From NCBI GenBank assembly GCA_963514005.1, contig OY740807.1, positions 12,648,001 to 12,712,000 on the forward strand: a stretch of DNA of 64,000 nt, written 5' to 3'. Below are positions 1,149 to 50,209 of the stretch, piece after piece. Each line of letters starts with the position of its first letter. Position 1 is the first letter of the stretch. The notes below the pieces were generated by a model. It worked only from the letters and a program-made list of their open reading frames with translations, did not search any database and was not told the DNA's origin. The position numbers were made by a program, and so were the translations under genes. The stretch is from Raja brachyura (Eukaryota).

Positions 1149-1238
1149 CTGTGGTGCAGTGCATTGTGGAAGATTTTTCAGCATTTCAAACTCTAGTTTG
1201 TGTTCGATATAATCCAGATCAGACTGTGCCTTCTGGAA
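1149..1238 (-). CDS. SKA2: SKA2 coding exon 2 (90 nt)
   Basis: AG/GT flanked; FQKAQSDLDYIEHKLEFEMLKNLPQCTAPQ matches the SKA2 motif FQKAESDLDYI. Confidence 0.94.
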
Positions 1239-8816: not shown

Positions 8817-9794
8817 TTAATCTCCTTTTCAGAGATGTAAGCATATAATCTATGACATTGAGCAATAATATGGAGAAAATGCTGCTTTTTTGTATGATGC
8901 TGCCTTTCAGAGACAATGTTAATCAAAAAGATCACCTTTGCTCCTTCAAAGGCACAAAAACAATAAAATGCTCTGGTATTATTAATATTTGAACTAATGA
9001 AGGCAACTCCTTCCACTACTACAATGGTCAATGCATGTGCTGGCTTTAAAAATCATGGTAAAACATGACACAAATTCACATGCAAATAATGCGATTGTCA
9101 CCACTGCGAAGGAATTAACATTTCAATTTGCCATCAGCAAGCTTGTAAATTCAATTAGAAATATGCACGGTGGCAGCGAATTATAACCAGTATTGCAAAG
9201 GACATGGGTCCTCAAGTCTGAGAAGTTACATATTCACACAGCTGTCCTCTGAAAATGGGACTGGGAAATTTCCACTTTCCTTGTGGAACATTGTTCAATG
9301 CCACATCTGCAAAAATTCAGTCATTTGGGAAAGTTATAAGCATTTCTTTAGCAAAGTGAAAGGCAGACTTACACCTTTCATCATACCAACTTAACCAGAT
9401 CTCATCTCAACCATATTTTCCAAATGTCGTGTCATGGGAATGAACAAATCTAGAATAGAAATGTTGATTGAAATTTACAGTTCTATCACCACATTGTTGA
9501 CAACCCTCAGTTCAAAGCACATGAATCAACATTTGAACTCTCGATGACAGAACATTACAGCACAAGAACATACATTTTATTTTTAATGATAAATCATTTG
9601 GTCAGGTTACAACTGAAAACGTTGGAGCTACTCACTGCAACAGGCAAGTGGGCTGAAAAACGTCCAGGCTGCTCTGTGGTACACATATTCTCGGATTCTC
9701 CTTGTGCAGAATTTGCCATTGCAAAACTACACCAATGTGAATACTCAAGTTTCTACTCACCGGTGTTTTGTAAGCCATTTTTGCTGCAATTCCC

Positions 9795-9875
9795 AAACAC
9801 TGAAACCCTATAAGCAATATTGCACTACTCACAGCTATCTACAAAGCAGAGGCAATATTGATAGGGTTCCAGTAC
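9795..9875 (-). ncRNA. MIR454: pre-mir-454 (3p 9805-9827, 5p 9846-9867)
   Basis: Minus strand 3p UAGUGCAAUAUUGCUUAUAGGGU is the known mature sequence; complementary 5p arm ACCCUAUCAAUAUUGCCUCUGC; located in SKA2 intron 1 as in mammals. Confidence 0.96.
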
Positions 9876-11503
9876 CCGAGCATCAAACATCATCACTTCC
9901 TAAAAGTGCACCCGGACCGCAAGTTTAATAAACAAAAATGCTTGAGACATGGAGTTATGTCAAAAATAATTGTTCATGCTCAATTTAGATTGCAATCCAT
10001 CATATGGTAGCAACATGATGTACATTGTGGATTAACCATTTTTTAAATTAGTGACATGAAAGGAAATTTATCACATAAGGAATGACGGAAACACTTTTCT
10101 TTAGATAACTTTTGCTATTTTTTGTAACATTGCTACCTTACAAGTTACTATTCCGATTTCAATTAACAAATTTATAATGCCACCAACTTTAAGTAATCTT
10201 AATTTAAATCTATTTTTCATAACGCATGCCACACTCCATGCATAAAAATGATTTATTAAAAATATTTGGCGGATATTCACCAGTCTCTTCCTAAAAATGG
10301 TGTAATTGAACATTTTCTAAAATCGCAACCAGTTTGCAAGTGAAGGAACATTAACAGCAAAATTATACAAATAACACAAGTCTGCAGTCCCGATATAATA
10401 CATCCATATTCTAATCTGTAGCATTTGAAGAAAGAGGCAAATTAACATGTTTTTAAAAAATTACAAACACACTTATTCAAAGATCTTGGGAAAAAAAAAT
10501 GTACACTTATGACACGACTGCAAGAGTCCGAATGAGTCACTGGATAAGTTCCAAACAAATTCTGCGATCTATTCTACAATGTTAATGATAATTGCTTTAT
10601 AAAAAAGACCAAGTGCAAAGAGACATTAATGTTGCTATCAATACCACTCATGATTAAGAAACTTCAAAAAAACTTACCTCTGTTAAGTGCAACATAACCA
10701 GGAGATAATGATTCAGTAATATGTTCATCGTATTAGCCAAGACAAGGAAACTGGAAATAGGTTTAACTTACACCTTATTTCTACTATCTGCAACACCATT
10801 ATTTCCATCATCTGCAAACTTACTAAATATCTATAGTGCAAAAACAATATTTAAAAAGGGATCAGGCGCAAACTATTTTCTTCCAGGCATGCAACAGCAA
10901 AACATCAGTGCTTATTGCGTATTTGATGAAATAGGACAAGATAGACAATCTAATGCTACAAATTAAATGCACATGCTCAATGTAAATATCGATTGCATAA
11001 AAACAAGTACCCCAATTCCGAATAACAAATATGTTTCTTCTTGTAGTAATTCAAAATAGGAAAAAAAACTGAAATTGTTAAAAGGGCACTCTATAGCTAG
11101 GTTTATCAAATAGAACATTGAAATTACGTTTCCTACTGGAGGATGGCAAGCACGTCAAGCTGCAGCAGGATTATCTGGAAACAATCCAGAAGCTGTCAAA
11201 CAAGTTAAAACAAAACACTAAAAAGGAATCACAGGGCATCTCAATGTGTCCCAAAGCCATTTATGAAATTTTGAAAGTTTAATTTGGAAAGTCAGTGATT
11301 TTAGAACATTTGGTACATGGAAAATGGTGAATGATCAAGATAGTCCTGCCTCTCTAGTGCTTGAATGCATTATGGAATTTTGTTAAAATAGATTATAGAA
11401 ACATAGAAATTAGGTGCAGGAGTAGGCCATTCGGCCCTTCGAGCCTGCACCGCCATTCAATATGATCATGGCTGATTATCCAACTCATTATCTTTCACTT
11501 CAG

Positions 11504-16453: not shown

Positions 16454-16659
16454 AACAGTTTGAAAATGATCAGCTGTATCCAAATCAAACTGGTATCAAG
16501 TTTTGTATCAATGTTCATAACCAGTCTATCAAAGTTCATACTGAATTATTGCAGTGCAATCAATACATAAATACAGCCTATGTTTACTAGAAAATTGCCA
16601 ATTACTCCTGATGACCAGTTGACGATTTCCAATCCTCTGCTGCTGATGATCTGATCTAC

Positions 16660-16738
16660 CTTCAGATGCTTTGACAATACTATTGCACTGCTAGCTGTGA
16701 AACACAGTAGTGCAATAAAGTCAGAGCACCTGTCAGCA
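16660..16738 (-). ncRNA. MIR301A: pre-mir-301 (3p 16668-16690, 5p 16706-16727)
   Basis: 3p CAGUGCAAUAGUAUUGUCAAAGC and 5p GCUCUGACUUUAUUGCACUACU match miR-301a and form a hairpin. Confidence 0.96.
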
Positions 16739-18702: not shown

Positions 18703-18785
18703 TCGCCGGCCAATGCCCTTTTAATATTGCACTGCTTTTTTTCGGTTATCACTAGTAGTACAACATAAAAAGGGCACTGGACGAA
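18703..18785 (-). ncRNA. MIR130C: pre-mir-130 family hairpin, miR-130c-like (3p 18713-18734, 5p 18754-18775)
   Basis: 3p CAGUGCAAUAUUAAAAGGGCAU, 5p GCCCUUUUUAUGUUGUACUACU; stem closes with ccagtgccc/gggcattgg. The paralog letter is tentative. Confidence 0.93.
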
Positions 18786-22737: not shown

Positions 22738-22770
22738 CATCGCTGCCAGCTTGTTGACCGCGGTCTCCAT
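22738..22770 (-). CDS. SKA2: SKA2 coding exon 1 (33 nt, METAVNKLAAM)
   Basis: AACATGG Kozak context, GTAAG donor, next to the CCAAT promoter; resembles the SKA2 N-terminus MEAEVDKLELM and joins exon 2 in frame. Confidence 0.9.
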
Positions 22771-22779
22771 GTTGAATAG

Positions 22780-23200
22780 TTTACATTCCGAAGGCGAACC
22801 GATAAAGGCCTTTTCAGCGCGATGTAACGCGGACTCTGATTGGACGATTGCTGCATAAAGTCCGCATTCTCATTGATCAGGGTAGAATGCGTCTTTCTGA
22901 TTGGACGATGGTCAGGCTTCTGCGAAATACAATAGGCCCGCTGATAGGATGACAGGTAAACGCATGCCGCCATTTCATTGGACACTCACGAGACGCAGTA
23001 TATTTCATTGGGCGAAATAAGGCTGTCATGGATTGGACGAAGTGCGAACGGGCCCAGTTCCTTCATTGGTTGAATCGGTCCGATGACTTTAAAACGACCC
23101 ACGCTATTGGCCTTAAATAGTTCCCAAGTGTGGATCATGAAAGATAGTGTCCTATTGGGTGAGACGTGTGCGTTTTAATTTAAAACGGCCGGCGTTGGGT
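22780..23200. promoter_or_regulatory. SKA2/PRR11 bidirectional cell-cycle promoter (NF-Y CCAAT cluster, CHR-like and YY1-like sites)
   Basis: ATTGG at 22839, 22900, 22977, 23007, 23032, 23065, 23106, 23154; TTTAAA at 23088 and 23179; GCCGCCATTT at 22966; CpG-rich and between two divergent genes. Confidence 0.88.
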
Positions 23201-27417: not shown

Positions 27418-27569
27418 ATGTACAAGCTGAATCAGCGTCGCAAAAAGTGGAAAATGGTGAGAAAATGGCATGCAATTGGAAATTCAAACAAAAATAGTAA
27501 GCGACGCCTGTTGGCAAAACACAAAGGATGTGCCTGCAAGCCAAAGCCAACCACTTGTCAAACACCAGA
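27418..27569 (+). CDS. PRR11: PRR11 first coding exon (152 nt)
   Basis: Polypyrimidine-CAG acceptor then CCATG; basic N-terminus MYKLNQRRKKWK resembles PRR11 MPKFKQRRRK; GTAAGT donor, phase 2. Confidence 0.82.
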
Positions 27570-28969
27570 GTAAGTTGCTCTTTAACTGGTTATTCAACTA
27601 GGCTCATCTTTCAGAGTGTGTTTGAATTGCACAAGACTATTACCATAAATTAACAATTATTTTACTGGATCTTGCACACCCAGCCACAAATATTACTTGA
27701 AGGTTACTAGAATTTTTGGAAAATCTTACTAATTAATTTCAGATGCCCTTTAGTGTTTTGAACAGCTTTTCTGGTCCTTTTATGTAGAGAATTAATTTGG
27801 GCTATAAATAATGGAAAATAAGATGTCAGGTGAAAGAAACAGATATTTTGCTCCAGTTCATTGCAGAGGATAAAATTAACTGCAGAAATTGGTGTAAATT
27901 GAGAACTTGGGGGGGGGGGGGGGGGTGCCTGAACCAGCATAACAGCAGCCTTCAAAGGCAACATCTCCACACTGAACCTTGAGCTGATTCTTTGCTGTGA
28001 TAGTGGCAGTAAACAGAAGGGTCTTGGCGCCTGCATTCCTAAAAGAGCCACACAAAAGCACAAGCATTTGGGAGAGGCTCCCAGTGTAACAATTGAAAGT
28101 TGCGCTGGAACCCAGTGTCATTTTTGAAATGTATGGTGTACATATCTGAGCATTTGGATTGGAAGACTAAAAGTACTATAACAAATCGATGCTCTGCGAG
28201 GTAGTGCTGCACTGGATACCACTACACGTAATTAGAAAATTGGTTATCATTTATTGATGGGGGTGTTAAATACAAAACTACACAATTTGTGCTTCAGTTA
28301 CATGGACCATTTGTTCGACCACATTTGGATTAATGTGTAGAGTATTCGTCATGTTTGAGGAAGGATATTAATGCACTAGAAGCGACTTTTGAGAAGGCTT
28401 ACGAGACTAATACCTAGAATGAATAGATTTCCCATAAGGAAAGGTTGTACAGGCAAGCATGTAAATGCTGCAGTAAGATGTGATTGGATTGAAGCGCACA
28501 AGATCCTGAGGAGTCTGGACAGTGGATGTAGAGAGGATGCTTCCACGTGGGAGAATCTATAAATAGGGTCACTGTGCAAAAATTACTTGTCCTTTTAAGA
28601 CTTTTTTTCCTCTGTGGGTCCCGAGTCTTTCCTCCGAAGATAGTGGAGGCAAAGTATTTAAATATTTATTGCAGAGTAAGATACTCGAGGGGGGGGGGGG
28701 GGGGGGTGAACGGTTACTGTTCTGTTTCTGGCTGCTTTTTGTTGCAGATGAATGTTGCATTTTCTGCTACATAGCTGTGTTGGTGTTTTTAAAAAAATTC
28801 CAATGTTGTGGAAAGTACTAAGTTGTTCACCTGTCCCAATTTAACTAGGTTTGCACCACAGACCTTTGCATGACTCGCCTGCTACCATTTCATATAAATG
28901 AGTTACTTGATATTGGTGTTTGTCTGTTCATGTATATCTCACTTGTATTTATTTTTATTTTAAACATAG

Positions 28970-29123
28970 GAAGGAGGATATGGTCACATCCTATAGCAAT
29001 TCCTTCCTGCATGAATCTGTTCCTGTCGGGCTTATTTCTTTAGTGAATGTGAAGAATTTATTCAATCCTCTTCAGACTGTGGTTAACTCCATATACTCCT
29101 GGTGGCTAAGGACCATTAGGCAG
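28970..29123 (+). CDS. PRR11: PRR11 coding exon 2 (154 nt)
   Basis: TAG/GT flanked, restores phase 0; ends SIYSWWLRTIRQ, similar to PRR11 SIYSWCQ. Confidence 0.85.
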
Positions 29124-30365
29124 GTATAAATTCAAATCAAATGTTCTCCAATTCAAATTGTGAAGTTGCTGTACTTTGGTAATCAATTGGATAATTATCT
29201 TGTGCCCTACAAATTGGGTGCATCTGTTCTCCAATTTGAAACCTCCACTGATTCAGACACTAATTGATCCTATGCTTTTCTTGCCCACAACCTCTGCTTT
29301 CTATTGCCCTTGTGATCCAGTGCTGGTTTATTAACCAGTGAACAAAATAATACAACACAAATAAGTGAACAAAAATGATCCAGGCCTGCTGTGCCTCCTA
29401 GGTTATATCCTCGCCCCAATCATTCCTTGCACACCTCTCCTACCATCATTCTCGTGGTGGATCCTAATTGCCAGCATTTCAGTTTCCTTTCAGATCCCCA
29501 CTTTGATGCAGAGAATCTAGTCATTGTGGCTAAATCTGATCCTGTTATCCTTTGGCATAAATGCACATTTTTCTAGCAGCGATTCTTGGTTTCAGTTAAT
29601 TTTTTTAAATGTAAAAAGTTGTGAAGCTCTTTTATTTATAATAAAAATCAAAAAAACTGAAACCAGTCTGAACGCTGCAATAAATGTAAATGCAAATGAT
29701 CTAAAATGGCTTGTGTTGCTATCCCTGTTACCCCTTAAATGTAATGCACTCTCCTCACTATACAAGTGGAATTGCAGTTTTCAGCCTCTTGGCAAACCCT
29801 TTCAAATGTAATGTTATTTAACTCTGGGTTATTTTCTACACATCTTGCCATAACAACTGCTTGGGGAATCCTACACACGACCTTGCAAGATGTGCTTTCT
29901 TTCTCTCTGAGCCCTCTTTTATAAATAAAAAATGCAAGCTAGTCCCAATTTTCCCCATCCTTTTTGTGAGATGCAGAGATATATGATGCCCAGCCATTAA
30001 GATGATTTGATAAAGAATGCTTTTGAGTTTATCATCAGAATAAGATTGTTACCAAGTATTTCCTCTGATGTATACTTGCAAATTTCTGTGGTGTGGAGAA
30101 ACTGGCTGAAATATGTTTTTGTCACTCTAATTCTTTTACAAATTGTAATCCATGCATGTTGGTTTCTGACCCTTCTGCTCGGGTAAAATGGTCCTTCCCA
30201 TTCTCTTGATCTAACCCTTTTATAATTTAACACGCCTCAGTACAATTTGACTGCAATTTTTTTTAAAATCTAGGTTCTGTATGTGACCTTTATCAAATGA
30301 GAAAAGGAGGGACAGAATTAGAAAAATGACAAACCAATCTTTATTTATTTCCTTTGCATTTACAG

Positions 30366-30497
30366 GGTTTTGAATTAATCAAAGATACTCTGTTTCCTTC
30401 ACGTGTTTACCTGAGGGAACTGAATGTACTCCGGCAACGTATTGAATCGCTTGAGATCAAAGTAACACAGATGCAAGAATTCTTCAATGAACATCAG
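30366..30497 (+). CDS. PRR11: PRR11 coding exon 3 (132 nt)
   Basis: GFELIKDTLFPSRVYLRELNVLRQRIESLE matches the conserved KDTIFPSR...REL motif; CAG/GT flanked. Confidence 0.92.
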
Positions 30498-31629
30498 GTT
30501 ATCTTTTGTTTATCAGTATTCACAACTTGCATGTAATACAACACATTTCCATTTGCTAGATATCGTGAATGCTCAATGGCAGAATTGCACAGAATGTTAG
30601 AAATTCTATGATTTCCACAACATTAATCAACAATTTCTCTAAACTGTCATTTATTGTAAATATTGCAAGCTATAAGTAGTATGAGATTAACATCTGCCCA
30701 GCAAGCCAGTTGCTCCTTTCTAGTAAAGTGAAGGAAGTGAAAATAATTAAAACAAGAAATGCTCAGCAGTCGGGCAGCATCTGCGGGAAGAGAAACTAGT
30801 GTAGCATTTCCTTATGGAATTTGGGACAAAAACAGGTTTTGACATAAAGTGGAGGGAGGGATGAACAGAACAAAGGAAGTTGTGTCGCTTTGCAGACTCA
30901 ACACAAACTTGGAAAAACCGTACCTCATCTTCTATTGTCCAGGCTTAATATCACAATTCTACTTTAATTGGGCACATGAAGAGCAGCAATATTTGTTGTT
31001 GGGTAATATTGGTACAAATTGATTTAATGGTCACTAGAAATATTGTTAAACAGACGTTAAGGAGAAAGCAAGGTTCTTATTCCAATGGGAGGTTTTGTCT
31101 AATTATTCAAAAAAAATGAGAGAAGATTAAATACGTATTTGATGCAGAACAACGTGCTTTTACGTTAATGGTAACATCACTCGTTGTTTGATTGTGGCAT
31201 CTGCAAAAGTAGAGGCATCATCAGGACCAATCAGGATTCAAAAAGGAGAGGAACAGTTGAATCCACTATAATTAAAGGGCAAACATGTAATCTATGATTT
31301 GGCAATCTAGATGAGATAAAATACTCAATCTGGTAAATGTGATCCAGAAAACACTTTATTCTTTACCAGTGATTTCTGCCATGACGTGCCACCTTCTGGA
31401 ATAAATTCTGAATGACTTGTAAATAGATACAAAATTGTATAATTTATCAATTTAATATGCAACATGGTAAACAATGATAAAAATCATTGGCCTTGAAGTA
31501 AATGATCCATAGATGTGAGATATAATGCATTGAACTTTCTATAACAAGGACTGCTTGAGCATTTTGAATGTCAGGCCAGATTCAAATCTCTCAATGCCCC
31601 CAAGTCTATGTAGTTCAGAACTTATTTGG

Positions 31630-32980
31630 AGGGTGTCATGTTTAATAGCCTGATGGCTCTAGGGAAGCTGTTTCAGAACCTGGACAGTACTTTTCAAGCT
31701 CCTGTACCACCTTCGCAATGGCAGAGGTGAAACCAGGGTGGTGTGGGTCTCTGATGCTGCCTGCCTTTTTTGAGGCAGCGACTCCTGTAAATCCCTTTGA
31801 TGGTGGGGAGGTCAGAATCAGTGATGGACTGGGCAATGCTCACCACTTTTATTGTCGTCTTTGCTCCTGGGCATTCAAGTTGCCGAACCAGGCCGAGATT
31901 CAACCAGTCAATAAGCTCTCTACTGTAGACCTGCAGAAGTTCAAGAGAATCCTCTCTGACATACAGAATCTGCAAAACCTCTTGGGAAGTAGAGCCATTG
32001 ATGGGCTCTCTTTATAATTGCATCAGTGTTTTGGGTCCAGGAAAGATCTTCAGAAAAATGCATGCCCCAAAATTTGAAGCTTTTGTCTCTCTCCACCATC
32101 ATCCCATCGATATCGACAGGTTTGTGGGTCTGTGCCCTTCTTCTTCCAAAGTCCACAATCGGTTCTGTGGTCTTACTGACATTGAGAGCTGTGATGTCGT
32201 GCTGGCACCATTTGGTCATTCGATTGATCCCACTTTCATACTCCGACTCGTCATCTGTAATTCATCCAACAACGGTGGTGTCATCTGCGAACTTGAAGAC
32301 TGAGTTTGCACAATGTCCAGCTTTGCAGTCGTGAGTATAGAGTAGAGCAGGTGGCTGAGCACACAGCCTTGAGCTGCTCCTGTACTAATGGTTATTGAGG
32401 AAGAAGTGTTGCTGCCAATTCAAACGGACTGTGGTCTGTTGATGATGAAGTCGAGGCTCCAGTTACAGAGAGATGTGCAGAGATCCAGTTCCTTGAGCTT
32501 GATAACTGGCATGGAGGGGATGATGGTATTGAAAACTGAGCTGTAGTCTATAAACAACGGCCTGTGTTATTGTCCTCCATTGACCTATTGTGGTGGTGGG
32601 CAAATTGTAATGGGTCAAGATTCTTGCTGAGGTAAGAGTTGATAAGTGCCATAACCAATCTCTCAAAGCACTTAATCACTACATACGTTAGTGCCACCGG
32701 TTGATGGTCATTGAGGCACTTTGCCTTGCTCTTCCTGGGCACTGGTAGTATTGATGCCCTCTTAAAGCAGGTGGGAACTTCTGACCTCTGTAATGAGAGG
32801 TTGCAGATGTCTGCAAAAACTCCAGCCAGTTGGTCGACACAGGTTTTAAGAACACGGCCAGGTATGCCATCAGGTCCAGAAACATTCCGAGGGTTCATCC
32901 CTCCCTGAAGGATCTTCTGGCATCAGTCTCTGTGACTATAATACTATCGGGGGCTAGGGAAGGCACATCAGTGTTCTATA
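31630..32980 (-). mobile_element. Rex/Babar-type LINE fragment
   Basis: GPDGIPGRVLK, KCFERLV, LDPLQFA and KTTEPIVDF motifs. Confidence 0.85.
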
Positions 32981-33596
32981 TGAAGTGGTCTGTATTTCCC
33001 TTCTGTTAGTTGCATGGGTCATCATTGATACAATACAATGGATTGTGGGATATAGTTACAAGTGACTAAAGTCCTATCTTAGCCTAGTTGGATTTTTTAG
33101 TATTATCACAAATATTTGGGTAAGATGTGCAGCCCAAAACATTTCAATGGACAGGTCTTATGATAAGGAAATGATTGCAATCCTGTAATGGGTTATTTGT
33201 TATTAATAGCAATGATCCTGTGTGGGATCTGGTTACTAGTGGAATAGTGCTGTGGGCAACATTCTTCACAATGGCCTAAATATAGATCAGTGGAGCTACC
33301 TGTAAATCTGTGTTTGCAAAGACATGCTGTGTAATGCAAAGACATGCAGGTGTTAGTATTTTTTTCAATGAGAGATGCCAAAGAAATGTTCCATGACTGG
33401 TACGTCATCTAATGTAGATTAAGTGTTTGCTATCTGGGCAGAGTTGGTGCCAGCTGTGTTCACAATGGACAATTATGAACCTGAATTGGCATTGAAGCTA
33501 AAGTAACTTTTCATGTGCATATCAATGAACACATGGAGCTATAACTCGACTTTGCAAGAACCTCCAGCTACCAACAAAGGGAGATATAGCTCAACT

Positions 33597-33900
33597 TGGC
33601 AAGGATATAAGGATAAGGGGGAATTCCTTTAGGACCGAGATGAGGAAAACATTCTTTACACAGAGAGTGGTGAGTCTCTGGAATTCTCTGCCACAGAAGG
33701 TAGTTGAGGCCAGTTCATTGGCTATATTTAAGAGGGAGTTAGATGTGGCACTTGTGGCTAAAGGGATTAGGGGGTATGGAGAGAAGGCAGGTACGGGATA
33801 CTGAGTTGGATGATCAGCCATGATCACATTGAATGGCGGTGCAGGCTCAAAGGGCCGAATGGCCTACTCCTGCACCTATTTTTCTATGTTTCTATGTTCT
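33597..33900 (+). mobile_element. CR1/HER1-like LINE 3' end
   Basis: Closely similar to 15408-15795, with a TTTCTATG repeat tail. Confidence 0.8.
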
Positions 33901-34350
33901 ATATCCAGATACCGACGAAATGAGATGTAGCATATCTCCTAGACAGACTTGCACCCGTTTCAGATTTTTTCATTTATTTAGGTAAATCTTACATTTACTC
34001 TGAACTGATCTGCCCCAGTGTTGACCTGTTTGTGGGAAGTGGGTGCCACTGATAAAGCAAATATTTACTCATCCAGAGTGGTGGCGTGAACTACTGCATT
34101 TCTTGTGATGAAGGTGCTCCTGAACTACAGTTCCAGGAATTTGATTCAATTACATGCAAAGGATGTGTTGCAGGAACTGGCAGTTTTGTGCATCACCGCC
34201 TTATTGGACATGATGGGTGCAAGTTTAAGAATATGCAAACTGTAGCCTAGTATCTAAATGTAATGGGTGAGTTGATTGAATAACTTGGTATAACTTTAAT
34301 TGTTTGGGTTAAATGTCTACTGTTTCTGAATTCTATTTTTTAATTTGCAG

Positions 34351-34596
34351 GAACCTAATACTGCAAAAGCTACTGAAGTATGTTTCTGTCGAAAGCATTT
34401 TGATTCCTTACCAGTTCCCAATAAAATTCCAATATGGCCAGTGCAGCCAATTGTCAGTTGCACTCCACTGAAGTCTCCAAAGGAACCTCCTCCTCCTCCT
34501 CCTCCTCCACCTCCCCCACCTCCACTACCTCCACACTCCCTGTTTGCAGTGAAGCCTCTGCAGATTCAAAGAAAACCTAGAGAAAAACACTTGCAA
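34351..34596 (+). CDS. PRR11: PRR11 coding exon 4, polyproline exon (246 nt)
   Basis: CAG/GTGAGT flanked; contains a run of about 13 prolines followed by LPP. Confidence 0.9.
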
Positions 34597-36260
34597 GTGA
34601 GTATGTAGTGAGCTGTGAACATATTCCACTCAGTTTTAACATTAATTAAATTCTGTGTGACCCGGTAAAAAAGATTTTTAAAATTAACATAGCATCTGAA
34701 TGTTTGTTATGGGTGACACAGTGGTGCAGCTACTGGAGCCGCTGTCTCACAGCTACAGTGTATTGGGTGGGAACCTGATCTTTGGTACAGTCTGTGTGGC
34801 GCTTGCATGTTCTCGTTGTGACTGAGATTCCACCATGTATTCTTCTTTCCTCCCGCATCCCCAAAACATGTTTCCTGCATTAGAGGGTATTATATATCGA
34901 GATTCGGAAAACTTGGATTTGTTTCCTCTGCCTTATCAGAGGTTTGGGGGGAGGCCTGACGGGTCCATAAAAGTATAAGAGGCCTAGATAGAATACCCAG
35001 TCAGAACCTTTTTTCCCCAGGGTGGAATTGTCAAAGACTAGAAAGCATAGCTTTAAGATGACAAAAACAATTTTATTTATTTTTTTTAAAGAGTCGTGGA
35101 TATCTGGAATGCACTCTGCCAGGGGTGGTGATGGAGGTTGACATAGTAGTGGCATTTTAGAGGCTTTTGGATATTCTGGGAATGGCAGGATAAGAACCAC
35201 ATGCAGGCAGAGGAGTTTAGTTTTGTATCATGTTCACCACAGACATTGTGGGTCAAAGGATCTGCCTTGCTGTTCTGCTCTAAGTTGGGAGGTAACTTGG
35301 CCACTAAAAATTATCCTATATGTGAATGGTAGAGTCTGTGGAGAATTGATGGTAATGTATGGATAATTTTTAAAAAATTGAACTAGTACAGTGTCTATGT
35401 AAATGATTGACTGAGTCCGTGGGCCTGTTTTCGCGCAGTAAATCTTTATCCCTATTGTTTTTGAATTTTGTGTTATTTGTAAAATGACTATTCAAAAGAT
35501 CCAGTTAGTTAACTCCAAGTGAAAAACTAAATTCTGGGAGTGTGTTAACATGATAGTGTGTTTGTTTGTTGAAACCACAGATGCAATAGGAGGAAGCAGT
35601 TAAAATAAAGATAAATCCATACCTGCAGTGAGTCTGTTTTGCTTTGAGATTTAGTACCCAGCTCTGGGTTTGATCCTCTTGAAAGCTCTTGAGTTTAGTA
35701 AATGAAAACCTCTATTGACGTGCTCTTTTGGATCGATGTATGTTCTCATCTTTCTATAAATTATTATCCCATGCTAGAATTGGAAGAATGTATCTTTCCT
35801 GGCATTTGAAGTTCTCACTCGGATAGAAAATTAAATTAGTGAAAATATAATCAAGGTCACAGTGTTCCCCATCAATGGGGAATTGGGATCGAGAGAGTGA
35901 CAAATTGGCCATGCATTGTTCTACCTATAATACTGCTGCATAGATCCATGAAATCAATTGCCTCTGAACATTTTGAACACGTTAAAAAACAACTGCTAAC
36001 TTTGGGGAAGTTTTTATGCTGTTTTTGTCTCATCTTGTGGGCCATAATCCACCAAAGACTTAGTTTATGCTCCCTGACTTAACAAATCCAAAGCTTATGC
36101 AGGCATCTTGTCCAAAACATCCTGTCAATCTAATACGTATCTGATTTCTGAAAGCTTCATTGGCAAAGGTATTACTTTGGGGATACTTTTCAGAATAAAT
36201 CATTTCCAAATATTGTTTATTATTGCATTCACCATCTTAATGATGATCCTTCTTTCACAG

Positions 36261-36359
36261 GCAATCGGTGAGGAAATCCTTAGACCCCCATCCATAACTA
36301 TAAAAGACTTGCTTCAAGTAAAACTGAAGAGGACTGTTGACAGATTTGAATTACTAAAG
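36261..36359 (+). CDS. PRR11: PRR11 coding exon 5 (99 nt, repeat copy A)
   Basis: CAG/GTTAGT, phase 0-0; AIGEEILRPPSITIKDLLQVKLKRTVDRFELLK. Confidence 0.82.
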
Positions 36360-36477
36360 GTTAGTGTTGATCAAAGATACTGGAGGTACTCCTCTAATAT
36401 CTTTGGTGCTGATCAAATCAAGCTAGTTTTGTCTTTGTGCACTTTGATGTAGGATATTGTTTTTGTGGTTTTTGTAG

Positions 36478-36576
36478 ATGGATCATGAGAGAAAAGATGG
36501 ACCACCATTTGTTACAATAAAGGATTTGCTTGATGTGAAGCTGAGAGCGACTCAGAACAAAGTAGAGAAAGCAAAG
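36478..36576 (+). CDS. PRR11: PRR11 coding exon 6 (99 nt, repeat copy B)
   Basis: TAG/GTGAG, phase 0-0; MDHERKDGPPFVTIKDLLDVKLRATQNKVEKAK, similar to PRR11 KDGPMQITVKDLLTVKLKKTQ. Confidence 0.9.
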
Positions 36577-37036
36577 GTGAGCATAATTGCTTAATGTTCA
36601 GACTAACACCAAACTGAACAGGTTAGTTGCCAGGTTAATTATTCCTGATGCTACGCAACTCGTATCAAACCAGCATGCACAAAGTTACTTTGAAGCTTAA
36701 TGGTATTTAAAACCACAAATATGAACAAGTGCCTGTTTGACTTTTAGTTTAAAGATACAGCATGGAAACGGACCCTTTGGCCCACAGTCTGTGCCAACCA
36801 GCAGTTCCAGCACACTAACACTATCCTGTGCACACGCTGAACTACAAACCTGAACATCTTTGGAGTGTGGGAGTGTTTTCTAACTAGAATTGTGTTGGAG
36901 ATTTTTCTTTTTAAATGCTTACTTTAGATGTGTATTATCTTACTAATCATGATTATACTTGGAAACAAAGTTGTAAATATTCTCATTTTTAGCTTTTTTT
37001 GTCTGAAATGCCATGAATTATGTACTTTGTTCTTAG

Positions 37037-37143
37037 ATGGATGCACCAGGAAAACTGAGATCCCCTTTGGTAACAATCCATGATCTACAAAGCTTTAATT
37101 TGCAGCGAAAAGCTAATCTGTTGCAGAAAACAGCAAAAATTAT
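37037..37143 (+). CDS. PRR11: PRR11 coding exon 7 (107 nt)
   Basis: TAG/GTAAGT; LRSPLVTIHDLQSFNL resembles RNPLVTVSDLQHVTL. Confidence 0.9.
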
Positions 37144-37178
37144 GTAAGTCTGAAATCTTTTCAATCTATATTCAATAC

Positions 37179-40100
37179 TGTTATGGTATATGTAATGTGT
37201 TTTTTTTCACGACTTAATAAAGTCTACGCATGTGTGAGGGTTTCCACACATGCGCAGGAGTGAGTTGTTTGAAAACTTGTCTCCGAACATGGTGGCAGCA
37301 GTGGTGCCTTAGAGAATTGTTTTTCTGCTGCAACCTGAGGTCCTGGCTAGAACGCCTGTTAAATGGCTAAGGACTAGCGAAATTGTCATGCGCTGTAGGA
37401 TGGGTGAGTGAGCAGCATTCAAGGCAAATAAAGTATTAAACCCGCTGCAATATGACATGACTACATGAATGGGCGTGTCAGACAGCCGTTCATCAGCAAG
37501 CTGAGTCAAGTGCTACGGACGAGGAGATGGGTGACCAGCAGCCTACGCAGCCAGCCAGCCATCAGTCGCACTCCACAGCACGCTGCGGGTCCGCTTCCTG
37601 TGAGCGGTATAAGGCTACTGACCCCATCGACTGTAAATCGAGGAGTGTTTGAGTTTTAGAAAACATGGCGTTGGATATGGGCAAACTGCAGCATAGTCGC
37701 TCAGCTAGACGGGCCAAACTTCAGCCTACCAGACGGTATTGTTTCTCCATACAATTGGCCTGTTGGGACTAGAGACTTGCGACAGTTTAGTGTTTGCCAA
37801 CGACGAGGAGAGCAGAGAACTGACCAAAATCATTCATGCATTCGAGAGCTACGCCATTGGCGAGAAGAATGAGACTTGTGAGCGATACCTCTTCAAGAGA
37901 CAGCAAGAAGTAGGTGTGAACTTTGAATCGTTTCTCGCTAGCCTGAGAACTAGCGAAGTACTGTATTTTCTGCCAGTGCATGACAGACGGCTTGCTCCGT
38001 GACAAGATCGTGCTGGGCATTAGGGACTCGCAGACGAGGAAATGTTTACTCCACGAAAGGAAGCTTGCACTCAGCGGATGTATCAACACCTGCAAGAGTG
38101 CCGAGACTGCTGAGTCGCATCTCCACGTTCCCAAATCTGCTGCTACTGTCCACAAAATCAGACAGCCGAGTGGCAAGAGGCGCAGCTGTGCGCAATCCAC
38201 ACGAGCAAGCAAAAGTGTGCAAGTATTGAGGCAAGGAGCATGCAATGGACAAACAGCAATGTCCAGCCTACAGACAGATGTACAAGGCATGTGGCAGTCG
38301 CAACCACTGCCAGAGTGTGTGGAAAGTGCACAAAGTGGACGACCAGGCCACAAGTGACATGAGCGTTAAGTTCATCAATAATGTCGCGCTTACAATTAAC
38401 AATATGCGGCCTAGAGATGTCTACGCATCGATGCTTGTCGCCGGGAAGCAGGTCTACTTCCAAGTGGACAGCAGAGTGAGCATGAACATCTTGCCATGCA
38501 CGATATTTACACGATGTTCACACTGCTCCCATGTCAAAAGAAGCTCATGAAGAAATCGTGTTGTCATGTGGTCTCCCCCCCTGTTTTGATAGCGATTTCC
38601 GTGCCTAATATCAAGCACCCGAAGGGCTGCCTGGAGTGGTGATTTGCGTCACAGACGACTTCCTCTTCCATGGTAAAGGTGAGGCGATGGAAGATGTGAT
38701 CATCAACCATGACTCAAAGTTCGAGCAGTTGCTTCAGCGATGTGTACAGCAACACATTAAACTCAACAGACAAGTCTGTCTTCAGAGCAACTGAGATACT
38801 CTTCTTTGGACATGTGATCATGACCGCAGGACTGCAACCAACAAAAAAGGTTGCAGATGTCGTCATCATGCCAGTATCCTCGGATGTACAGGGTGTGCAG
38901 AGGCTAGTTGGATTCATCAATTACCTGAGCTGTTTTCTACCCAGCCTGTCTGATACCCTTGAGGCCATCAGACAGCTGACAAGACCAGATATAATATGGG
39001 AGTGGTGTGCTGAGCAGGACAATGCGATGTCGAAGATCAGACAGATGGTGTCTGAAGCACCAATGTTAGCATACTACAATCCCAAGGAGGAGCTGACGAT
39101 TCGGTGTGATGCGACCAACAAGGGACTGGGAGCAGCCTTGCTCTAAAAGCATGTCCCATCACATATGCGAGCAGAGCAATAACCGACAAGAATCGCGATA
39201 TGCTTTGATTGAGAAGGAGATGCTTGCTGTGATATTCACAATGAAGTGTTATCATCAATACACATTTGGCCATTTCACCAGCGTGAGCAGCGATCACAAG
39301 CCGCTTGAAATGATAGCGAGGAAGCCGCTAATGAAAGCGCCAAAGCATCTCCAAGGTATACTACTCCACCTACAAAGCTATGATTTCGACATCAGCTACT
39401 GTCAGGGGAAGTTCGTGTATCTTGCAGATACACTGTCGTGTGCAGTTAGCGATACTCCGAGCAGACAGCAAGCATTCGAGGGGGTCAACATACTTTTTAA
39501 TTGGCAATGAGCGTCTCGAGCAAATTCGTGATGAAATGGCGAAAGAAGACGCGCTACAGATGCTGAAACTCGTCATCATCAGTGGTTGGCCTAGTGAATG
39601 CGATAAGCTACCGGAGCAGCTCGCATCTTATTACAGACATAGGGATGAGCTTGCAGTCCAAGATGGTTTGATCTTCAATGGCGAGCGTGTGATCATACCG
39701 ATAAGCTTACGCAGACGTGAAAGAAAAGATACATTCTTCACATCTGGGCATTGAGGGCTGCCTACGAGGAGCACGCGAATGCCTATTCTGGCCTGGCATG
39801 AGTAGCGACATCAAGCAGTATATTGCTGCATGTGATGTGTGCCGCACATATGAGGCGAGCCAGCAAAAAGAGTCGGTTATGAGCTACCGACTAGGCCGTC
39901 GGAGAAAATCTGCATAGATCTCTTCACATGGGACGGGAAAGATTATCTCGTCGCTGTCGACTACCATAGCAACTTTGGTGATGTAGACCGGCTGAGACAC
40001 GAACAGTCCAACCGTAATTCGCAAGTTGAAAGCTCATTTTGCCCGATACAGCAGTGCGGCACAAGTTATGAGCGATAATGGACCGCAGTACACATCGGTC

Positions 40101-40985
40101 GCATTTCACCAGTTCACGAGTGAATAGGATTTTGAGCACCTGTGTAGCAGTCCCGGTAAAAGCAAAGCGAACGAGAAAGCAGAATCAACCATCAAAACGG
40201 CAAAGTGAATCATGACTAAGAGCAACAAATCCCGATCTGACCCCTACTTGGTGATGTTGGATCATCGTAACATGCCTTTGTAAGGGCTGAGTGCGTCCCG
40301 CTCAGTGCCTCATGAATCATCGCACGCATACATTTCTGCCTACGACAGCAAGACTACTCGAAGCCAGAGTAATCTACAATCATGAACGCATGAAGCGGCG
40401 TGCTCAGCAGCAAACTGACAATTACAAGTCAGCTAAAGACCTTTCCCCACTTCACGGAGGCGACGGTGTGAATGCACCCCCTCGTACAAGTAAAGAAGAG
40501 TTGAGAGAAAACAATAGATAACACCGACCACAACTAACGTGACACAGGCGTTGAAACGGCAGCCAGCACCTACTGAAGAAGAAACAGCTACTGAGCAAAT
40601 TGACGACAATGACCTTGACATGACTAATAATGAAAACTCCTTCGGGTCGAGCTGTGAGCGCCAAAGTATCTCAGAGACTATGTGACACATTGATTTTATC
40701 GTAATCAATCAATTGTTATGTCTGCATGAGGTTGCAAGTATGATCCTACAAAAATAGGATAATGAGAAGGAAAGGAACTTTGACTTTAAAATAAAACGTG
40801 TTATTTTCTAACTTGGACAGATACATGCCAAGTGAGCATACATTGTACAACTCAGTTTTTCTGTTTTGGAAAAAGGAATGACAAAATGATATACGTAATG
40901 TTTGTTTAACGACTTGAAGTCCACGCTTGCACGGGGGTTCCCCGCATGTGCAGGAGTTGCTTCTTAGAAAACTTGTCTCTGAACA
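37179..40985 (+). mobile_element. Decayed Gypsy LTR retrotransposon with about 110-bp LTRs (37179-37289 and 40879-40985)
   Basis: AATAC 5-bp TSD on both sides; TG..CA LTRs; PBS TGGTGGCAGC at 37290; polypurine tract 40868-40878; gag (LRDKIVLGI), RT/RNase H (RYALIEKEMLA, SDHKPL) and integrase (HSSHLG...CDVC) remnants in Gypsy order. Confidence 0.92.
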
Positions 40986-41180
40986 AATACCAGGTAACAT
41001 TGAAGAATGATTTTGATTAATTAGTAGTTCAATTATTTGAATTGTCAATGAATTTTGAAGTGGGTACAGTAATGCATCTTAAATTTGAATTGAATCTACA
41101 TTTTAAATGTTAATATTCTTAGGATTTGTGATAAGCAAGGGAAGCACAATTAAATGTAAACTCATCCTGTTGTACGTTGA

Positions 41181-41397
41181 AGGGCTTGTCCCACCAGCAT
41201 GCGACTGCATGCGGTGAGCGCGACCTAACCTGGTCGCTTGAGCCGTACAGCCTCGCGGGGCCGGTCCCACTTCGATCGCCGGAGGCGTATGGAGTTGTGC
41301 GGGACTGGTCCCGATGTTGCCCGGGCTCCGAAAAGGCTGTACGCTTCAAGCCACCACGTTCGGTCGCATGCAGTCGCTTGCTGGTGGGACAGGCCCT
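41181..41397. mobile_element. Short Harbinger-type MITE of the same family as 8265-8816
   Basis: Same TIR and shared subterminal GCGCGACCTAAC..GTCGCTTGAGCCGT; TGA/TAA flanks. Confidence 0.85.
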
Positions 41398-41975
41398 TAA
41401 AGGACCCAGGACTTGTTGTTTTACAATTTGCTATTATTTACGGTATGTCTGTACATTGATTACTGTAACTGATAACGACCAGCTAATCTGTTTTGGTAAT
41501 GTTAGTTGAAGGCTAGGTATCAGCTCTGATACCCATGCAAACACCCCATGCGGCGATACTTTAATTAACATTCGTTCCCGCAATGAAAGTAGTGCAGCTG
41601 GTAGAACTTTCCTTGCAGCATCAGAAACCAGAGTTTGATCCTAACCTGGGATGCTATTTCTGTGGAGTTTGCTTTTTCTCCCAGAGATCGTGTGGGTTTC
41701 ATCCCGATGCTAATTTCAATATAATTTCCTCCCACATTCCAAAGATGTGCAGGTTTGGAAGTTAATTGGCAAGTGTGACATTGCTCTGGATGTGTTGGGA
41801 ATGGGTGAGAAAGTGGGATAACATAGAACTAGTGTGAAGGGGTGATCAATGGTCATCATGGACTCGGTGGACCCTAAGGCCCTGTTTCCATGCTGTATAA
41901 CTTGTTTTTTTATAAAAAGCAATACATTCAAATTATAATTTCAAGTCTTGTTTTATTTTTTATTTTGCTTTAAAG

Positions 41976-42038
41976 GATTACTCCACATCGACCTGTGCTG
42001 GATATACGGCAGAGGCTAAAGAAAGTAAATATAGAAAG
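41976..42038 (+). CDS. PRR11: PRR11 coding exon 8 (63 nt)
   Basis: Phase 2-2; ITPHRPVLDIRQRLKKVNIER resembles TP...DLRKLLRKVDVER. Confidence 0.87.
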
Positions 42039-44022
42039 GTAATAGACAATAGGTGGCTTTTTTCTATTTTTGAGGACGAATGCTTGTATTAATTGGAGTG
42101 GTGCCATTGATAATTTCAAATAATGATAACCTGCACATATGACGATAATTTGATCAGACTTGTACTGCTGAGTGAATGTCTCTAACAAAGAAATGTAGCT
42201 TAAAGCTCTCTAGATGACTCTCAGTATTACAGCCATCACCCAGTTCTACAGCATCAATATCCTGGGACATGGCTTTCACCTGCAAATGTAAGATGACAAT
42301 CAAATTGAGGGATATGTATTCGATTGCAAATGACTTTGCTCTCAGCTTCCTGAAAATGTTCCCCACTTTCTAGGGCCTGGGGTGGTGGGGGGGGGGCGAA
42401 GAAAGGAAGAGAGGGTGTTAGTGGGTCATAAATGTGTTACTCTTCTAATTATTGAGAGACGTGCTTAATTTTCCCACTTTACTAACAATCTGCAGCCCTT
42501 TTTCCCCATTCAGGATTGCATCTAATAGGCTGTATGTTGAGACACAGCTCCCACCTGAACACAAAAATAAAGGGTACTGGAACAGGTCATCTGGTCTTTC
42601 AAGCCTGCCCTGTCATGAAATATGATTTACTAGAATGTTGCCTGGGTTCCAGTAACTAAGTTACAGAGAAAGGTTGAACAAGTTAGGTCTTTATTCTTTG
42701 GAGTACAGAAGGTTAAGGAGGGGGACTTGATTGAGGTCTTTAACATGATGAAAGGGATAGACAGAGTTGATGTGGATAAGCTTTTCCCATTGAGGGTAGG
42801 GGAGATTCAAACAAGAGGGCATGACATGAGAATTAAGGGACAGAAGTTTAGGGGTAACATGAGGGGGAACTTCTTTACTCAGAGTGGTGGCTGTGTGGAA
42901 TGATCTACCAGCAGAAGTGGTGGAGGCAGGATCGATTTTAACATTTAAAAGTAAAGTGGATAGGTATATGGACGGGAAGTGAGGGGTATGGTCTGGGTGC
43001 AGGTAGATGGGACTAAGGGAAAATAAATGGTCAGCACGGACTGGAAGGGCCGAGAAGGCCTGTTTCTGTGCTGTAATTGTTATATGGTTATTATCATGGT
43101 TAATCAATACAGGTGTCAATACCTCTTCTATGTCATTTTTGCATACCCTTCTATCAAATATAAATCCATGTCCACTTTAAATGCTTCTAATGATCTGGCT
43201 CTCACTGCCCACTCGGGCAGGGAATTCCAAAGATTTGCTACCATCTGCAAGAAGAAATTCCCATGTACTTCAGTTTTACATGACTGGCCTCAAGTTGCGT
43301 CTCCTTATTTAAGACCTGACCATGAGTGAAGACATTCTAACACCTCCCTCGTCAAGCACCCTTTAGAATAATTTTAGCTACTCTTCCTATTCTCATGCCA
43401 TCTCCACTGCCAGAGCAAGGTCACACGCAAACTACAGGAGCAGATCATCAAATTCTGCTTGGCAGCTTATAATTCAACAGTATGATCATTGAATTCTTCA
43501 ACCCCTCCCCTCCCACTGCCCCATCCACCTATATACCCTCCTCTGCCTTTATCTCGCTATTCTCTCTTTATTCTTCTCATCTCCAACCTTTGACACGTAC
43601 TCCACCTTGACACTTAGCTTGTCTACAGTTTCTTGTCTCTCCTTTTGGATCCTGCATGTTTCAATGGGTTGTTCATTTACAATTTCATTTTTCTAAAACA
43701 TTTTGACTGTTTTTGCTCCTCCCAAACTAGTAAAATCCAAATCCTGTTTACGTTGGTAGGTGCTGAAATCAGCCTGAATGTGATTAAATAACTTATGCCC
43801 AAAGCATTTTCCAGTGTGTGAACCAGTTACAAAAAGCAAAGTCTGTGAACAAGGTTCACCATTTTACAACACATTTATTAAAACTGCTGTTCAGCACCTT
43901 GTACTAATTGAAACCTTGTTGTGAAAATGATATAGCTTGCTGCTGAATAATAGATGCTTGTGTATTTTGAGATGTTGAGTGTTACTGTATGATTGCTTAA
44001 CCTAAAAGGTGCTTGGTTATAG

Positions 44023-44116
44023 GAGCCCTGGTGGAACACCCCTCCACAAGGAGAGCAAAGATACTGCGACAGGATTGACACCAGTTATGACCCAAGCATT
44101 AAGACGGAAATTTGAG
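44023..44116 (+). CDS. PRR11: PRR11 coding exon 9 (94 nt)
   Basis: [31 protein letters not shown] contains the highly conserved SPGGTP and [14 protein letters not shown] motifs. Confidence 0.95.
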
Positions 44117-46122: not shown

Positions 46123-46204
46123 AGAACTGTTAAACCTTGCAGATTTGTATAATCCATGATGTTGAGGTTACATTTGAATTAACAAGCTTTGACCTCTATT
46201 TCAG

Positions 46205-46279
46205 ATGGCTCATCCTAAAAGTCCTCCTCAATGCTGCTCCTCGCCAAACACCAGCTTTGATGAGCAACATGCTTGCTAA
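46205..46279 (+). CDS. PRR11: PRR11 last coding exon, with stop codon
   Basis: CAG acceptor; MAHPKSPPQCCSSPNTSFDEQHAC* resembles LAHPRSP...SFDEQN*; total CDS 1221 nt in frame. Confidence 0.92.
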   Translation: MAHPKSPPQCCSSPNTSFDEQHAC

Positions 46280-47668
46280 TTTTGCTTGTGCAATGTATTT
46301 TTTTAAATCAAATGACAAACCATGTAAATGTGTATACATTTAAATGTACTTTTTACGATGTTCAGACAAATAGATTATAGCTAATTATTTCATATGTACT
46401 TTTAACCATATTTGATAATTATTCATGGTCAGCCTGCAGTGTGTTAATCTTCAACGGTTAACTGATGTTCTTCACATTTACATGATTTGCACTACTCCAG
46501 AGAATGAATCTGCAGACTGCGAAAGGGGAAAAGGCTGGTCAGTCCCTACAGATCAAAATATTTATTTTTTTTGGGGGGGGGGCAAGAATGGTTCTACTTT
46601 TTAGATTGAACCTGCAATTTATAAATTGCTACTTTTACAGTTATATTTGACTTTTTTAATGTTTTTAAGACTATACATACCTCGTACTTTGTGTTCAATT
46701 ATTCACCGTTGGCTTTAATTCCAATTCCCCTGCATCTTTTTAAATGTTGGAGAAATCATTTTGGGGGAAATTGTTCATGATTTCTGGGGGGGGGCGGGGA
46801 AGGGGGGGGAAAGAGTCTAAAGTCTGTTTCCTTTGACATGTGTGTCCCAACTATTGGGGCTGATTTGAATGATCCCGATCATGGAACTAGCCCAGTTCAT
46901 GATTCAAGGACATTATGAATAGACCAATAATCAGCAAAACCTTCGAATATCAGAGCTTTACAACATTGCAAATGCTACAAGCTTACATTGACATGGTGTT
47001 GAAATTGGCACCTTGATAATTAGCAGGAATTAAGTAAACTGGACCTGGAGTAATTAGTAACTTGTATGAATTAAAGTGTTCAACTTTCTCTAGCACATAA
47101 ACACAAGTTTGATTTTTTTTTTTCCCTTCCTTTGGAAAAACAATGTCACTAGTATCATCTTTCACTTCACATTTTAATAACACTCCAGATGTCCATGGTT
47201 CACTTTTTTATACCAACCAGCTTTTGCATGGTGCTGTGCAAAAATCTCGCTATTCAGTTTTATTCCAACCAGTAGAAACCAAACATGTTAATTATTCTGT
47301 ATCAAGAATTATTGGGACACTCAAAATTAAGAATTTAAGGACCCCCCCCTTCCCCCCCCCGTAACTGCATTGGTGAGCTTTTATTACTTAATTTGAGATG
47401 AATGACATTTAACGAGTTTTACCAAACAAGAACAGTGTTGGTCATATTTCTGTTATCCCAATGTTGTGTGCATCTCGCTCATTTTGTGGGAACTCGTACG
47501 GAATTACCAAGTGAGAGAATTTTAATTTAAATGTTGCAATTTACTCAGTGCCATTCCTGTTTTGGTCATAAAAGACTGTAAAAAGAATTGGTTAAACTGT
47601 TGATAGTCATGTAATGCGATTTCTAACTTGTTTTCAAATTGCCATTGAGATTTTAACTGCGTGCAAGA

Positions 47669-47674
47669 AATAAA
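47669..47674 (+). terminator. Candidate PRR11 polyadenylation signal AATAAA (alternative ATTAAA at 47070)
   Basis: First AATAAA I found after the stop codon, at the end of a repeat-poor AU-rich stretch. Confidence 0.5.
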
Positions 47675-48179
47675 CTGGCTAATTTCATTCAAGCTACTTT
47701 ATTTGCAATGAAAAAGGCAATATCTTGGAGCTCTTAAAGATAGCGATGTCAAGGGATATTGGGAGAAGTCAGGAACGGGGTACTGATTGTTGATGAATGG
47801 TGGTGCTGGCTCGAAGGGAATGGCCTGCTCTTGTGTATTGTCTATCTTTAAATATCAATATTCTACAAGATGCCACACCATTCTGTCAATAGTTGAGCAA
47901 GCCTGTGTTACTGGAATTAATAGGAGTGCATCGTATGAACTGTCTTAAATAAATAAATAATAAATACATTTTCAGCCAAGACTTAAATTGTCAAAAGGCA
48001 CAAAGTACTGGGGTAACTGCGGGTCAGGCAACATATTTTGGGTCGGCACCCTTCAGTCTGAAGGGTTCCAACCTGAAATGTCATGTATCCATGTTCTCTC
48101 GATGTTGCTTGACCCACTGAGTTACTCCAGGACTTTTTTGTAAATCGGCATCTGCCGTTCCTTGTGTCTCTGATCTTAT

Positions 48180-49015: not shown

Positions 49016-50209
49016 GCGTTTCCAAATCAAAATAAAATGCTAGAGTTTTAAAATTACAAAATGAAGCACTTTGAATCCAGATGTGTCGTGGATGTCTTTC
49101 ACAAAACTAGTCTTGTAAATTTGTTCAATTTAAAAACTACACCTCATCTATAACTAAATAGTGGTACTTTGACAAAGATATTAACCAAAAATCTGCCTGT
49201 TCCAAAGGTTGCACTGTTCCTAATAATTGTAAAGTTGAAATAGTTCTCAAAAGGTTACATTTTCAACTTTAAAAACATTTTATATTGACATTTTTTAGCA
49301 TTTGTCCATGTAATACATTTTAGCCTCTGGCTCGTATTGCAATGAATTGCTTCTATTTATTTAATAAACATTGAAAAATGAATAAATGTACTTTATTTAA
49401 TTGTGTGCCGTGGCAAATTGCTGATCTACCCAAAAATACAACTATGAATAATGTGGGAATCTCAAATGCTGATTTCTGTTGATCTAAACAACCTGCAGGC
49501 AGGAGTGCACATGTACAAGCTTTGTTGCATTTTATGTGCAACCTAATTGAACAAAGGGCCTCTATCCAAGCAACAATTGACACTGGTTTACCAGATTACA
49601 GGAATGGGGGATTTCGTATGCAAGATCAGAATGAAGAACTGCAGATACATTAAATCTTCTCTGCAGGAAGGAGGGTAAGTGTATATGATCAGGATGAGTT
49701 TACTTGCAGAGTAGCTTTACTTGCCATCCAATGGATAATGCAAGGAGTGGAAATTAGTCTTGAATTGTCATATGTACCCACAATGGTGCAATGAACCTTT
49801 GCAGCAACTTAACAGGCCCATAAACACAATACACACAACTAATTGATCAAAACTTTTGATATATTAACAGGTTCAAAGTGATGAGCAAGGGATGGAGTGT
49901 AGAGAATTTCCATTTTATACTGAACTTGGTGGAGATTTCCCATTTGTTGCTTGTAATGGTAGTGGAAACAATTAATTAGGAATTGCAAAGGAGGATTCTA
50001 CAGGCAATTGAGGGAGAGGGAAGGAAAAATAGCTGCGTGTGAATGGGTTGCTCTACAAAGAAATTATGGGTTAAACAAATACTGTACATTAATAATACCA
50101 GGGGAAGATAATATGTTTCTCAATGTTCTCTTTCAAGACGTGGAGGTGAACCAAACAGTGAACTCTGTTGAGGAAATATGCGGGAAGGAACTGCAGCTGC
50201 TGGTTTGAA

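Follow-up and report, generated by a model that had tools for sequence, protein, structure and literature searches.

A single candidate miR-130/301/454 site in the PRR11 3′ UTR of the skate Raja brachyura, opposite three same-seed microRNAs in the SKA2 intron

The skate locus and the closest described systems

The head-to-head gene pair PRR11/SKA2 and the intronic miR-301 plus miR-454 have already been described in human. A comparison of the human PRR11-SKA2 unit, as described in a review (PMC6411626), with a 64,000-nt stretch of DNA from the skate Raja brachyura (the window: GCA_963514005.1, contig OY740807.1, positions 12,648,001 to 12,712,000, forward strand) shows that the skate shares the head-to-head genes, a CCAAT-rich spacer and microRNAs within a SKA2 intron. 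The human SKA2 intron holds miR-301a and miR-454, whereas the skate intron adds a third member, mir-130. The regulatory loops described in that review are indirect and act positively on SKA2, through MEOX2/CREB and NKRF/NF-kB, rather than by repression of PRR11. A second comparable arrangement is the intragenic microRNA that represses its own host, where one promoter likewise serves both target and repressor (PMC7554026); in the skate, by contrast, the candidate target is the divergent neighbor PRR11 and not the host SKA2. About 20% of intronic microRNAs are predicted to repress their own host (PMC8471046). Set beside canonical 8mer targets of miR-130-3p/301-3p/454-3p (PMC8797432), the skate PRR11 site is alike in its match to positions 2-8, its A1, its location in the 3′ UTR and its distance from the stop codon, but it is single and predicted from sequence, and human PRR11 is not among the miR-130a chimeras.

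All three hairpins lie within SKA2 intron 1, between exon 1 (ATG at 22770) and exon 2 (1238), score above the Rfam gathering threshold, and carry AGUGCAA on the 3p arm (Table 1). The Rfam matches and the mature 3p arms thus bear out the first-pass annotation of this DNA, which had stated that the three SKA2-intronic microRNAs have a common seed, reported in PMC8797432 as that of the miR-130-3p/301-3p/454-3p family. A search of intron 1 for a fourth miR-130-family hairpin found none. The same annotation had PRR11 and SKA2 sharing a promoter; the head-to-head arrangement and the eight CCAAT boxes between the genes are present, while promoter function is carried over from human work. Such boxes are as expected from the human promoter, which has been shown to be bidirectional and NF-Y-driven (PMC6411626). 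A match to an alternative first coding exon, with a GTAAGT donor, lies between mir-301 and mir-454 just upstream of mir-454 and hints that mir-454 may have a second transcription start.

Skate SKA2 itself is a long form: at ~235 aa against the 121 aa of human SKA2, it has four additional exons and, at its C-terminus, a domain (PF11362 in relatives); its parts lie at 532-22770 (-) of the window, L023:4745-7165 and L011:7930-8076. Intron 1 also contains, between mir-301 and mir-454, an inverted repeat whose 32-bp arms match perfectly around a loop of 6 nt (11916-11985). It matches no Rfam family above threshold; candidates for its nature are a small transposon, a young hairpin of microRNA type and a substrate for editing.

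Table 1. Positions of features in the 64,000-nt window that bear on the candidate site.
Feature	Position	Strand	Basis
SKA2 exons 2 (1149-1238) and 3 (532-708); gene extends left of the window	532..1238	-	
mir-454 hairpin; mature 3p ~9805-9827	9788..9889	-	Rfam RF00746, 99 bits
Match to a first coding exon used alternatively in Leucoraja erinacea SKA2 (annotated isoform)	10678..10728	-	88% over 17 aa
mir-301 hairpin; mature 3p ~16668-16690	16655..16738	-	Rfam RF02061, 97.7 bits
mir-130 hairpin; mature 3p ~18712-18734	18703..18784	-	Rfam RF00258, 54.8 bits
SKA2 exon 1, coding part METAVNKLAAM, then donor GTAAGC; ATG at 22770	22738..22770	-	putative exon-1 assignment
Putative bidirectional promoter region; 8 CCAAT/ATTGG boxes (22839-23154)	22771..23170	.	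putative function, after human work (PMC6411626)
PRR11 upstream coding exons, span	27418..44116	+	tblastn of skate PRR11 proteins on window
PRR11 exons 1st-3rd upstream, approx.	27418-27570, 28971-29123, 30366-30497	+	tblastn
PRR11 exons 4th-6th upstream, approx.	34348-34599, 36258-36377, 36478-36579	+	tblastn
PRR11 exons 7th-9th upstream, approx.	37037-37144, 41977-42057, 44021-44116	+	tblastn
Coding part of the final PRR11 exon, with TAA stop at 46277-46279	46205..46279	+	tblastn; splice from 44116 by contig loose ends
PRR11 3′ UTR	46280..47970	+	contig-supported to 46700; end near AATAAA cluster inferred
Inverted-repeat 5′ arm, 17 nt, of predicted stem; contains UGUAAAUG	46316..46332	+	repeat search and folding
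Inverted-repeat 3′ arm; covers first 3 bases of the 8mer, predicted pairing to 46491	46473..46489	+	
8mer site TTGCACTA for seed AGUGCAA (miR-130/301/454)	46487..46494	+	sequence match
Candidate proximal polyA signal AATAAA	47669..47674	+	hexamer
Three-AATAAA cluster, candidate main polyA signal	47948..47964	+	hexamers
7mer-m8 TTGCACT; in mRNA only if the UTR extends beyond 47970	49209..49215	+	

The 8mer in the spliced PRR11 transcript

The last PRR11 exon, MAHPKSPPQCCSSPNTSFDEQHAC, has exactly the sequence with which the PRR11 of Amblyraja radiata ends, and the exon query returned seven proteins among 12 candidates, six of them named PRR11 and coming from skates, rays and sharks. Contigs over 46150-46700 start at 46198, and their loose ends match the final stretch of the preceding exon (44080-44109); contigs from all four runs (X3, X11, X19 and X20) join 44116 to 46205 in this way; these runs, none of which is recorded as RNA, were taken as transcript-derived solely on the spliced contigs. 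A spliced contig of run X3, from the best-matching organism, passes from the upstream exon to 46700 with one difference and spans the 8mer, placing the 8mer inside the spliced PRR11 transcript. The first-pass annotation had allowed that the transcript might end before 46487, which this contig rules out for at least one isoform. Run X3 also contains 0.77 of the sampled words from 46150-48000, so the UTR likely reaches, and likely ends at, the AATAAA cluster.

Several other features of this gene and its surroundings were observed. The exon at 41977-42057 is present in Rhinoraja, Mobula and shark proteins and missing from Amblyraja isoform X2, and is likely a cassette exon. A PRR11 intron holds broken frames resembling an LTR-retrotransposon protease, reverse transcriptase and integrase (37700-40600, translations judged by eye). 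A high-copy repeat fragment matched by thousands of contigs, in all four DNA runs, occupies 47700-47830 of the putative UTR, just past the first AATAAA. Downstream, a 536-aa frame at 56373-57983 (+) resembles the large exon of SMG8, which would match the human gene order.

The 8mer lies on the plus strand where the first-pass annotation had placed it, with seed positions 2-8 matched perfectly and an A opposite position 1, and its spacing from the PRR11 stop, given there as about 210 nt, measures 208 nt. This is a canonical placement, in the 3′ UTR of the mature mRNA and >15 nt from the stop. The candidate polyA signals said to follow it do so, with AATAAA at 47669 and at 47948, 47952 and 47959 all downstream, and neither AATAAA nor ATTAAA occurs between the stop and the 8mer. 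It is the sole TGCACT (6mer or better) in the UTR to 47970. The region is non-repetitive, as 46205-46780 has one genome match and depth is flat over 46342-46533. The AU-rich context ascribed to the site is found upstream (70% AU) but not downstream (53% AU); its distance-weighted AU stands at the 33rd percentile of the PRR11 UTR, and its predicted 8-nt accessibility at the 35th-57th percentile over four window sizes. In register, the microRNAs pair by the seed only, the longest 3′ run being four bases (miR-130 positions 12-15, offset 3), and their 3′ pairing at the 8mer is weak or gapped.

Chance, conservation and the human orthologue

The expected frequency of such a site was estimated in several ways. 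In 3000 dinucleotide shuffles the chance of an 8mer is 4.2% for a UTR of ~1.69 kb and 8.4% for one of 3.1 kb, and shuffling gives a 24% chance of a 7mer or better. The local rate, seven 8mers per 400,000 nt (200 kb of neighboring DNA, both strands), corresponds to 2.9% for a 1,690-nt UTR. Within the window itself TTGCACTA has six matches on both strands against 3.2 expected, a count reached by 13 of 100 shuffles, and two of the six are within the microRNA hairpins. Since 483 of the 16,384 possible seeds have an 8mer in the PRR11 UTR, about three 8mers per hundred families are expected here; AGUGCAA alone, among six seeds compared, has one. By our own arithmetic, the chance becomes ~10% if three neighboring UTRs that would give the same story are counted. 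If selected 8mers for the miR-130/301/454 family occur in some 2% of genes, an 8mer that is found would be a selected one about one third of the time, before other evidence. A single 8mer may arise by chance, as the first-pass annotation cautioned, and we judge this to be the more likely reading.

Conservation was assessed in seven coded organisms that have the PRR11 UTR stretch, of which B to F are 95-99% identical. The 8mer is intact in organism D, whose contig over 46317-46569 has five differences, four of them listed and none in the 8mer. Among the changes listed for organisms B, C, E and F (48 substitution and 34 indel rows lie beyond these), none falls in the 8mer; for the organism E contig, eight of nine substitutions are among those listed. 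With 3-6.5% variable positions, eight bases would remain unchanged by chance 58-78% of the time (relatives pooled). Organism E shows fewer changes over the first 645 nt than over the distal UTR (9/629 vs 39/877, Fisher P=0.0009), a proximal count that takes in 130 nt of exon and intron; organism F shows no such contrast (P=0.40). Contigs of the most distant organism, G, reach only ~46320, at low depth. An 18-nt match to 46474-46491 in an organism G contig has unrelated flanks and was set aside as chance. Two scans of metagenomes for vertebrate PRR11 gave no match.

Krivdova et al. 2022 (PMC11185845) used chimeric AGO2 eCLIP to map human miR-130a targets, working with CD34+ and Kasumi-1 cells. 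A search of the whole file of their chimera table (Table S4, 3,038 rows) found no occurrence of PRR11, and E2F1, PBK, CCNA2, CCNB1 and DEPDC1 are among the chimeric targets. In their proteome (Table S2), PRR11 protein is up in three of three miR-130a-overexpressing CD34+ samples (+0.48, +0.24 and +0.27; mean +0.33 log2; P 0.034 by ratios, 0.11 two-sample), and the validated target TBL1XR1 fell by 0.40. SKA2 occurs twice in Table S4, once in the Kasumi-1 3′ UTR column, which hints at possible targeting of the host gene by the family in human; in skate SKA2, by contrast, a self-targeting site was sought and TGCACT is absent from the 5 kb past the stop. These human data bear weakly on the skate site: chimera lists are incomplete, and the protein rise may follow faster cycling.

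A review of PRR11 names miR-26b-5p, -195, -211-5p, -204-5p and -144-3p and not the miR-130 family (PMC9775115). For the seeds of these five human microRNAs the skate UTR lacks any 8mer or 7mer-m8 and offers a single 7mer-A1 (miR-204/211), which points to site turnover. PRR11 is missing from the supplements of PMC7501550 and PMC9551196, and from the list of PMC8173128, a three-database intersection that makes a poor control because PRR11 is absent there for miR-195 too. The literature surveyed, mostly not in full text, contained no report of PRR11 as a target of miR-301a, miR-454 or miR-130, and nothing in the literature searched joined "feed-forward loop" with miR-301.

Possible roles of the site

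We favor, with a probability of roughly 65%, the reading that this is a single canonical 8mer in spliced PRR11 mRNA, an ordinary lineage-level site that arose through 3′ UTR turnover and confers at most mild repression. Argonaute loaded with any member of the AGUGCAA-seed family would pair with it by the seed only (positions 2-8), RISC would melt the weak end of a predicted stem at a cost of 3.7-4.6 kcal/mol, and the life of PRR11 mRNA would be slightly shortened by the cell-wide miR-130-family pool. MicroRNA half-lives are long relative to G2/M. Repression would set the level of PRR11 in dividing cells rather than produce a G2/M pulse, because microRNAs act in trans and are long-lived. Given this action in trans and an origin from two or more loci, the shared promoter would add little beyond the usual co-regulation of proliferation genes; promoter linkage is also not needed, since the human targets of the family already include other cell-cycle genes. 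Against this ordinary-site reading, a chance of 3-4% is still low, and the seed is made by the same locus.

The first-pass annotation had proposed an incoherent feed-forward loop at this locus. Its anatomy holds up (head-to-head genes, three hairpins and an 8mer in the mature mRNA), while its function is put in question by a second cluster with identical mature microRNAs and by human data that lack PRR11 targeting. As a selected arrangement, an NF-Y-type promoter would yield PRR11 mRNA and, in the opposing direction, miR-130/301/454 that, at least in cartilaginous fish, cap PRR11 output in dividing cells and make it less noisy. We regard this as unlikely, even though every part is present, the site is of the best type 208 nt past the stop, an 8mer had only a 3-4% chance of occurring, and it is intact in organism D. 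Preservation of the eight bases among such close relatives is expected by chance in 58-78% of cases, and with the long half-lives of microRNAs the loop could fix a level of PRR11 but would not give a pulse confined to one phase. Three sources are consistent with the selected loop: the human promoter is bidirectional and NF-Y driven (PMC6411626), synthetic intronic-microRNA loops lower noise (PMC7554026), and human stem cells given an E2F inhibitor have less miR-301a-3p and miR-454-3p (bioRxiv 10.1101/2024.02.28.582539).

The supply of repressor speaks against such a loop. A second mir-130/mir-301 cluster lies on another contig (G000:C30:10874301-10874849, hairpins 470 nt apart), and its mature miR-130 and miR-301 are identical to those of the SKA2 intron, so the repressor pool is not bound to the PRR11/SKA2 promoter alone. 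The alternative SKA2 first exon in intron 1 hints at a separate start for mir-454. Correlation between host and microRNA is moderate and uneven: in human tumors the pooled r with SKA2 is 0.30 for miR-301a-3p and 0.32 for miR-454-3p, with a range of -0.02 to 0.61 for miR-301a-3p and of about 0 to 0.68 overall (PMC8471046 Table S2), and PMC11605766 reports a smoking-linked rise of miR-301a with SKA2 unchanged. The level of these microRNAs is probably tied to the PRR11/SKA2 promoter only in part. PRR11 is also without human targeting in the miR-130a data (PMC11185845).

An inverted repeat that is predicted to pair over the 8mer, new here and a lead found post hoc, suggests another possibility, in which pairing of 46313-46332 with 46473-46491 would hide five bases of the 8mer together with all of the 3′ pairing region, leaving the site silent unless a protein on the UGUAAAUG arm opened the stem. 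The arms are 16/17 complementary and ~140 nt apart, and the 12-bp core of the stem has predicted pair probabilities of 0.97-1.0 in three folding spans; positions 46487-46491 are predicted to be mostly paired and 46492-46494 mostly free, and opening the 8mer is predicted to cost 3.7-4.6 kcal/mol in local folds. At a fixed 8-nt spot, complementarity of 16 bases is reached in 4 of 380 control windows from the genome and in none of 300 shuffles, but 16 of the 380 contain a comparable repeat somewhere. The stem region overall folds no better than shuffles (z -0.61, 52/200 as good), and window-averaged accessibility is average. Of the substitutions listed for D, E and F, none lies within the arms, and the relatives compared show no compensatory change; in organism G, where the partner arm is not covered, one change from A-U to G-U keeps a pair and one breaks the terminal pair.

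The UGUAAAUG motif of the 5′ arm is one base off a Pumilio element, and no canonical UGUAHAUA occurs in the PRR11 UTR. In the 3′ UTR of p27/CDKN1B, Pumilio binding reportedly opens a hairpin and exposes a miR-221/222 site; in the skate, too, a predicted stem covers a seed site and the facing arm bears a UGUA motif, but 140 nt separate the arms and the motif departs from the canonical form. A site masked in this way is, in our estimate, quite improbable. Less probable again is a combination of the two, a gated single-locus feed-forward loop in cartilaginous fish, built from the bidirectional promoter and a stem opened by an RNA-binding protein, which mammals lost or moved to SKA2.

In conclusion, the present evidence amounts to one predicted site, and any UTR of 1.7 kb has a few such sites for conserved families of microRNAs; its most probable role is that of an ordinary site with at most mild effect on PRR11. 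A loop that proved real would offer a natural example of microRNAs from one side of a bidirectional promoter limiting the gene across from them, and it would do so at a locus that has drawn much attention in cancer.
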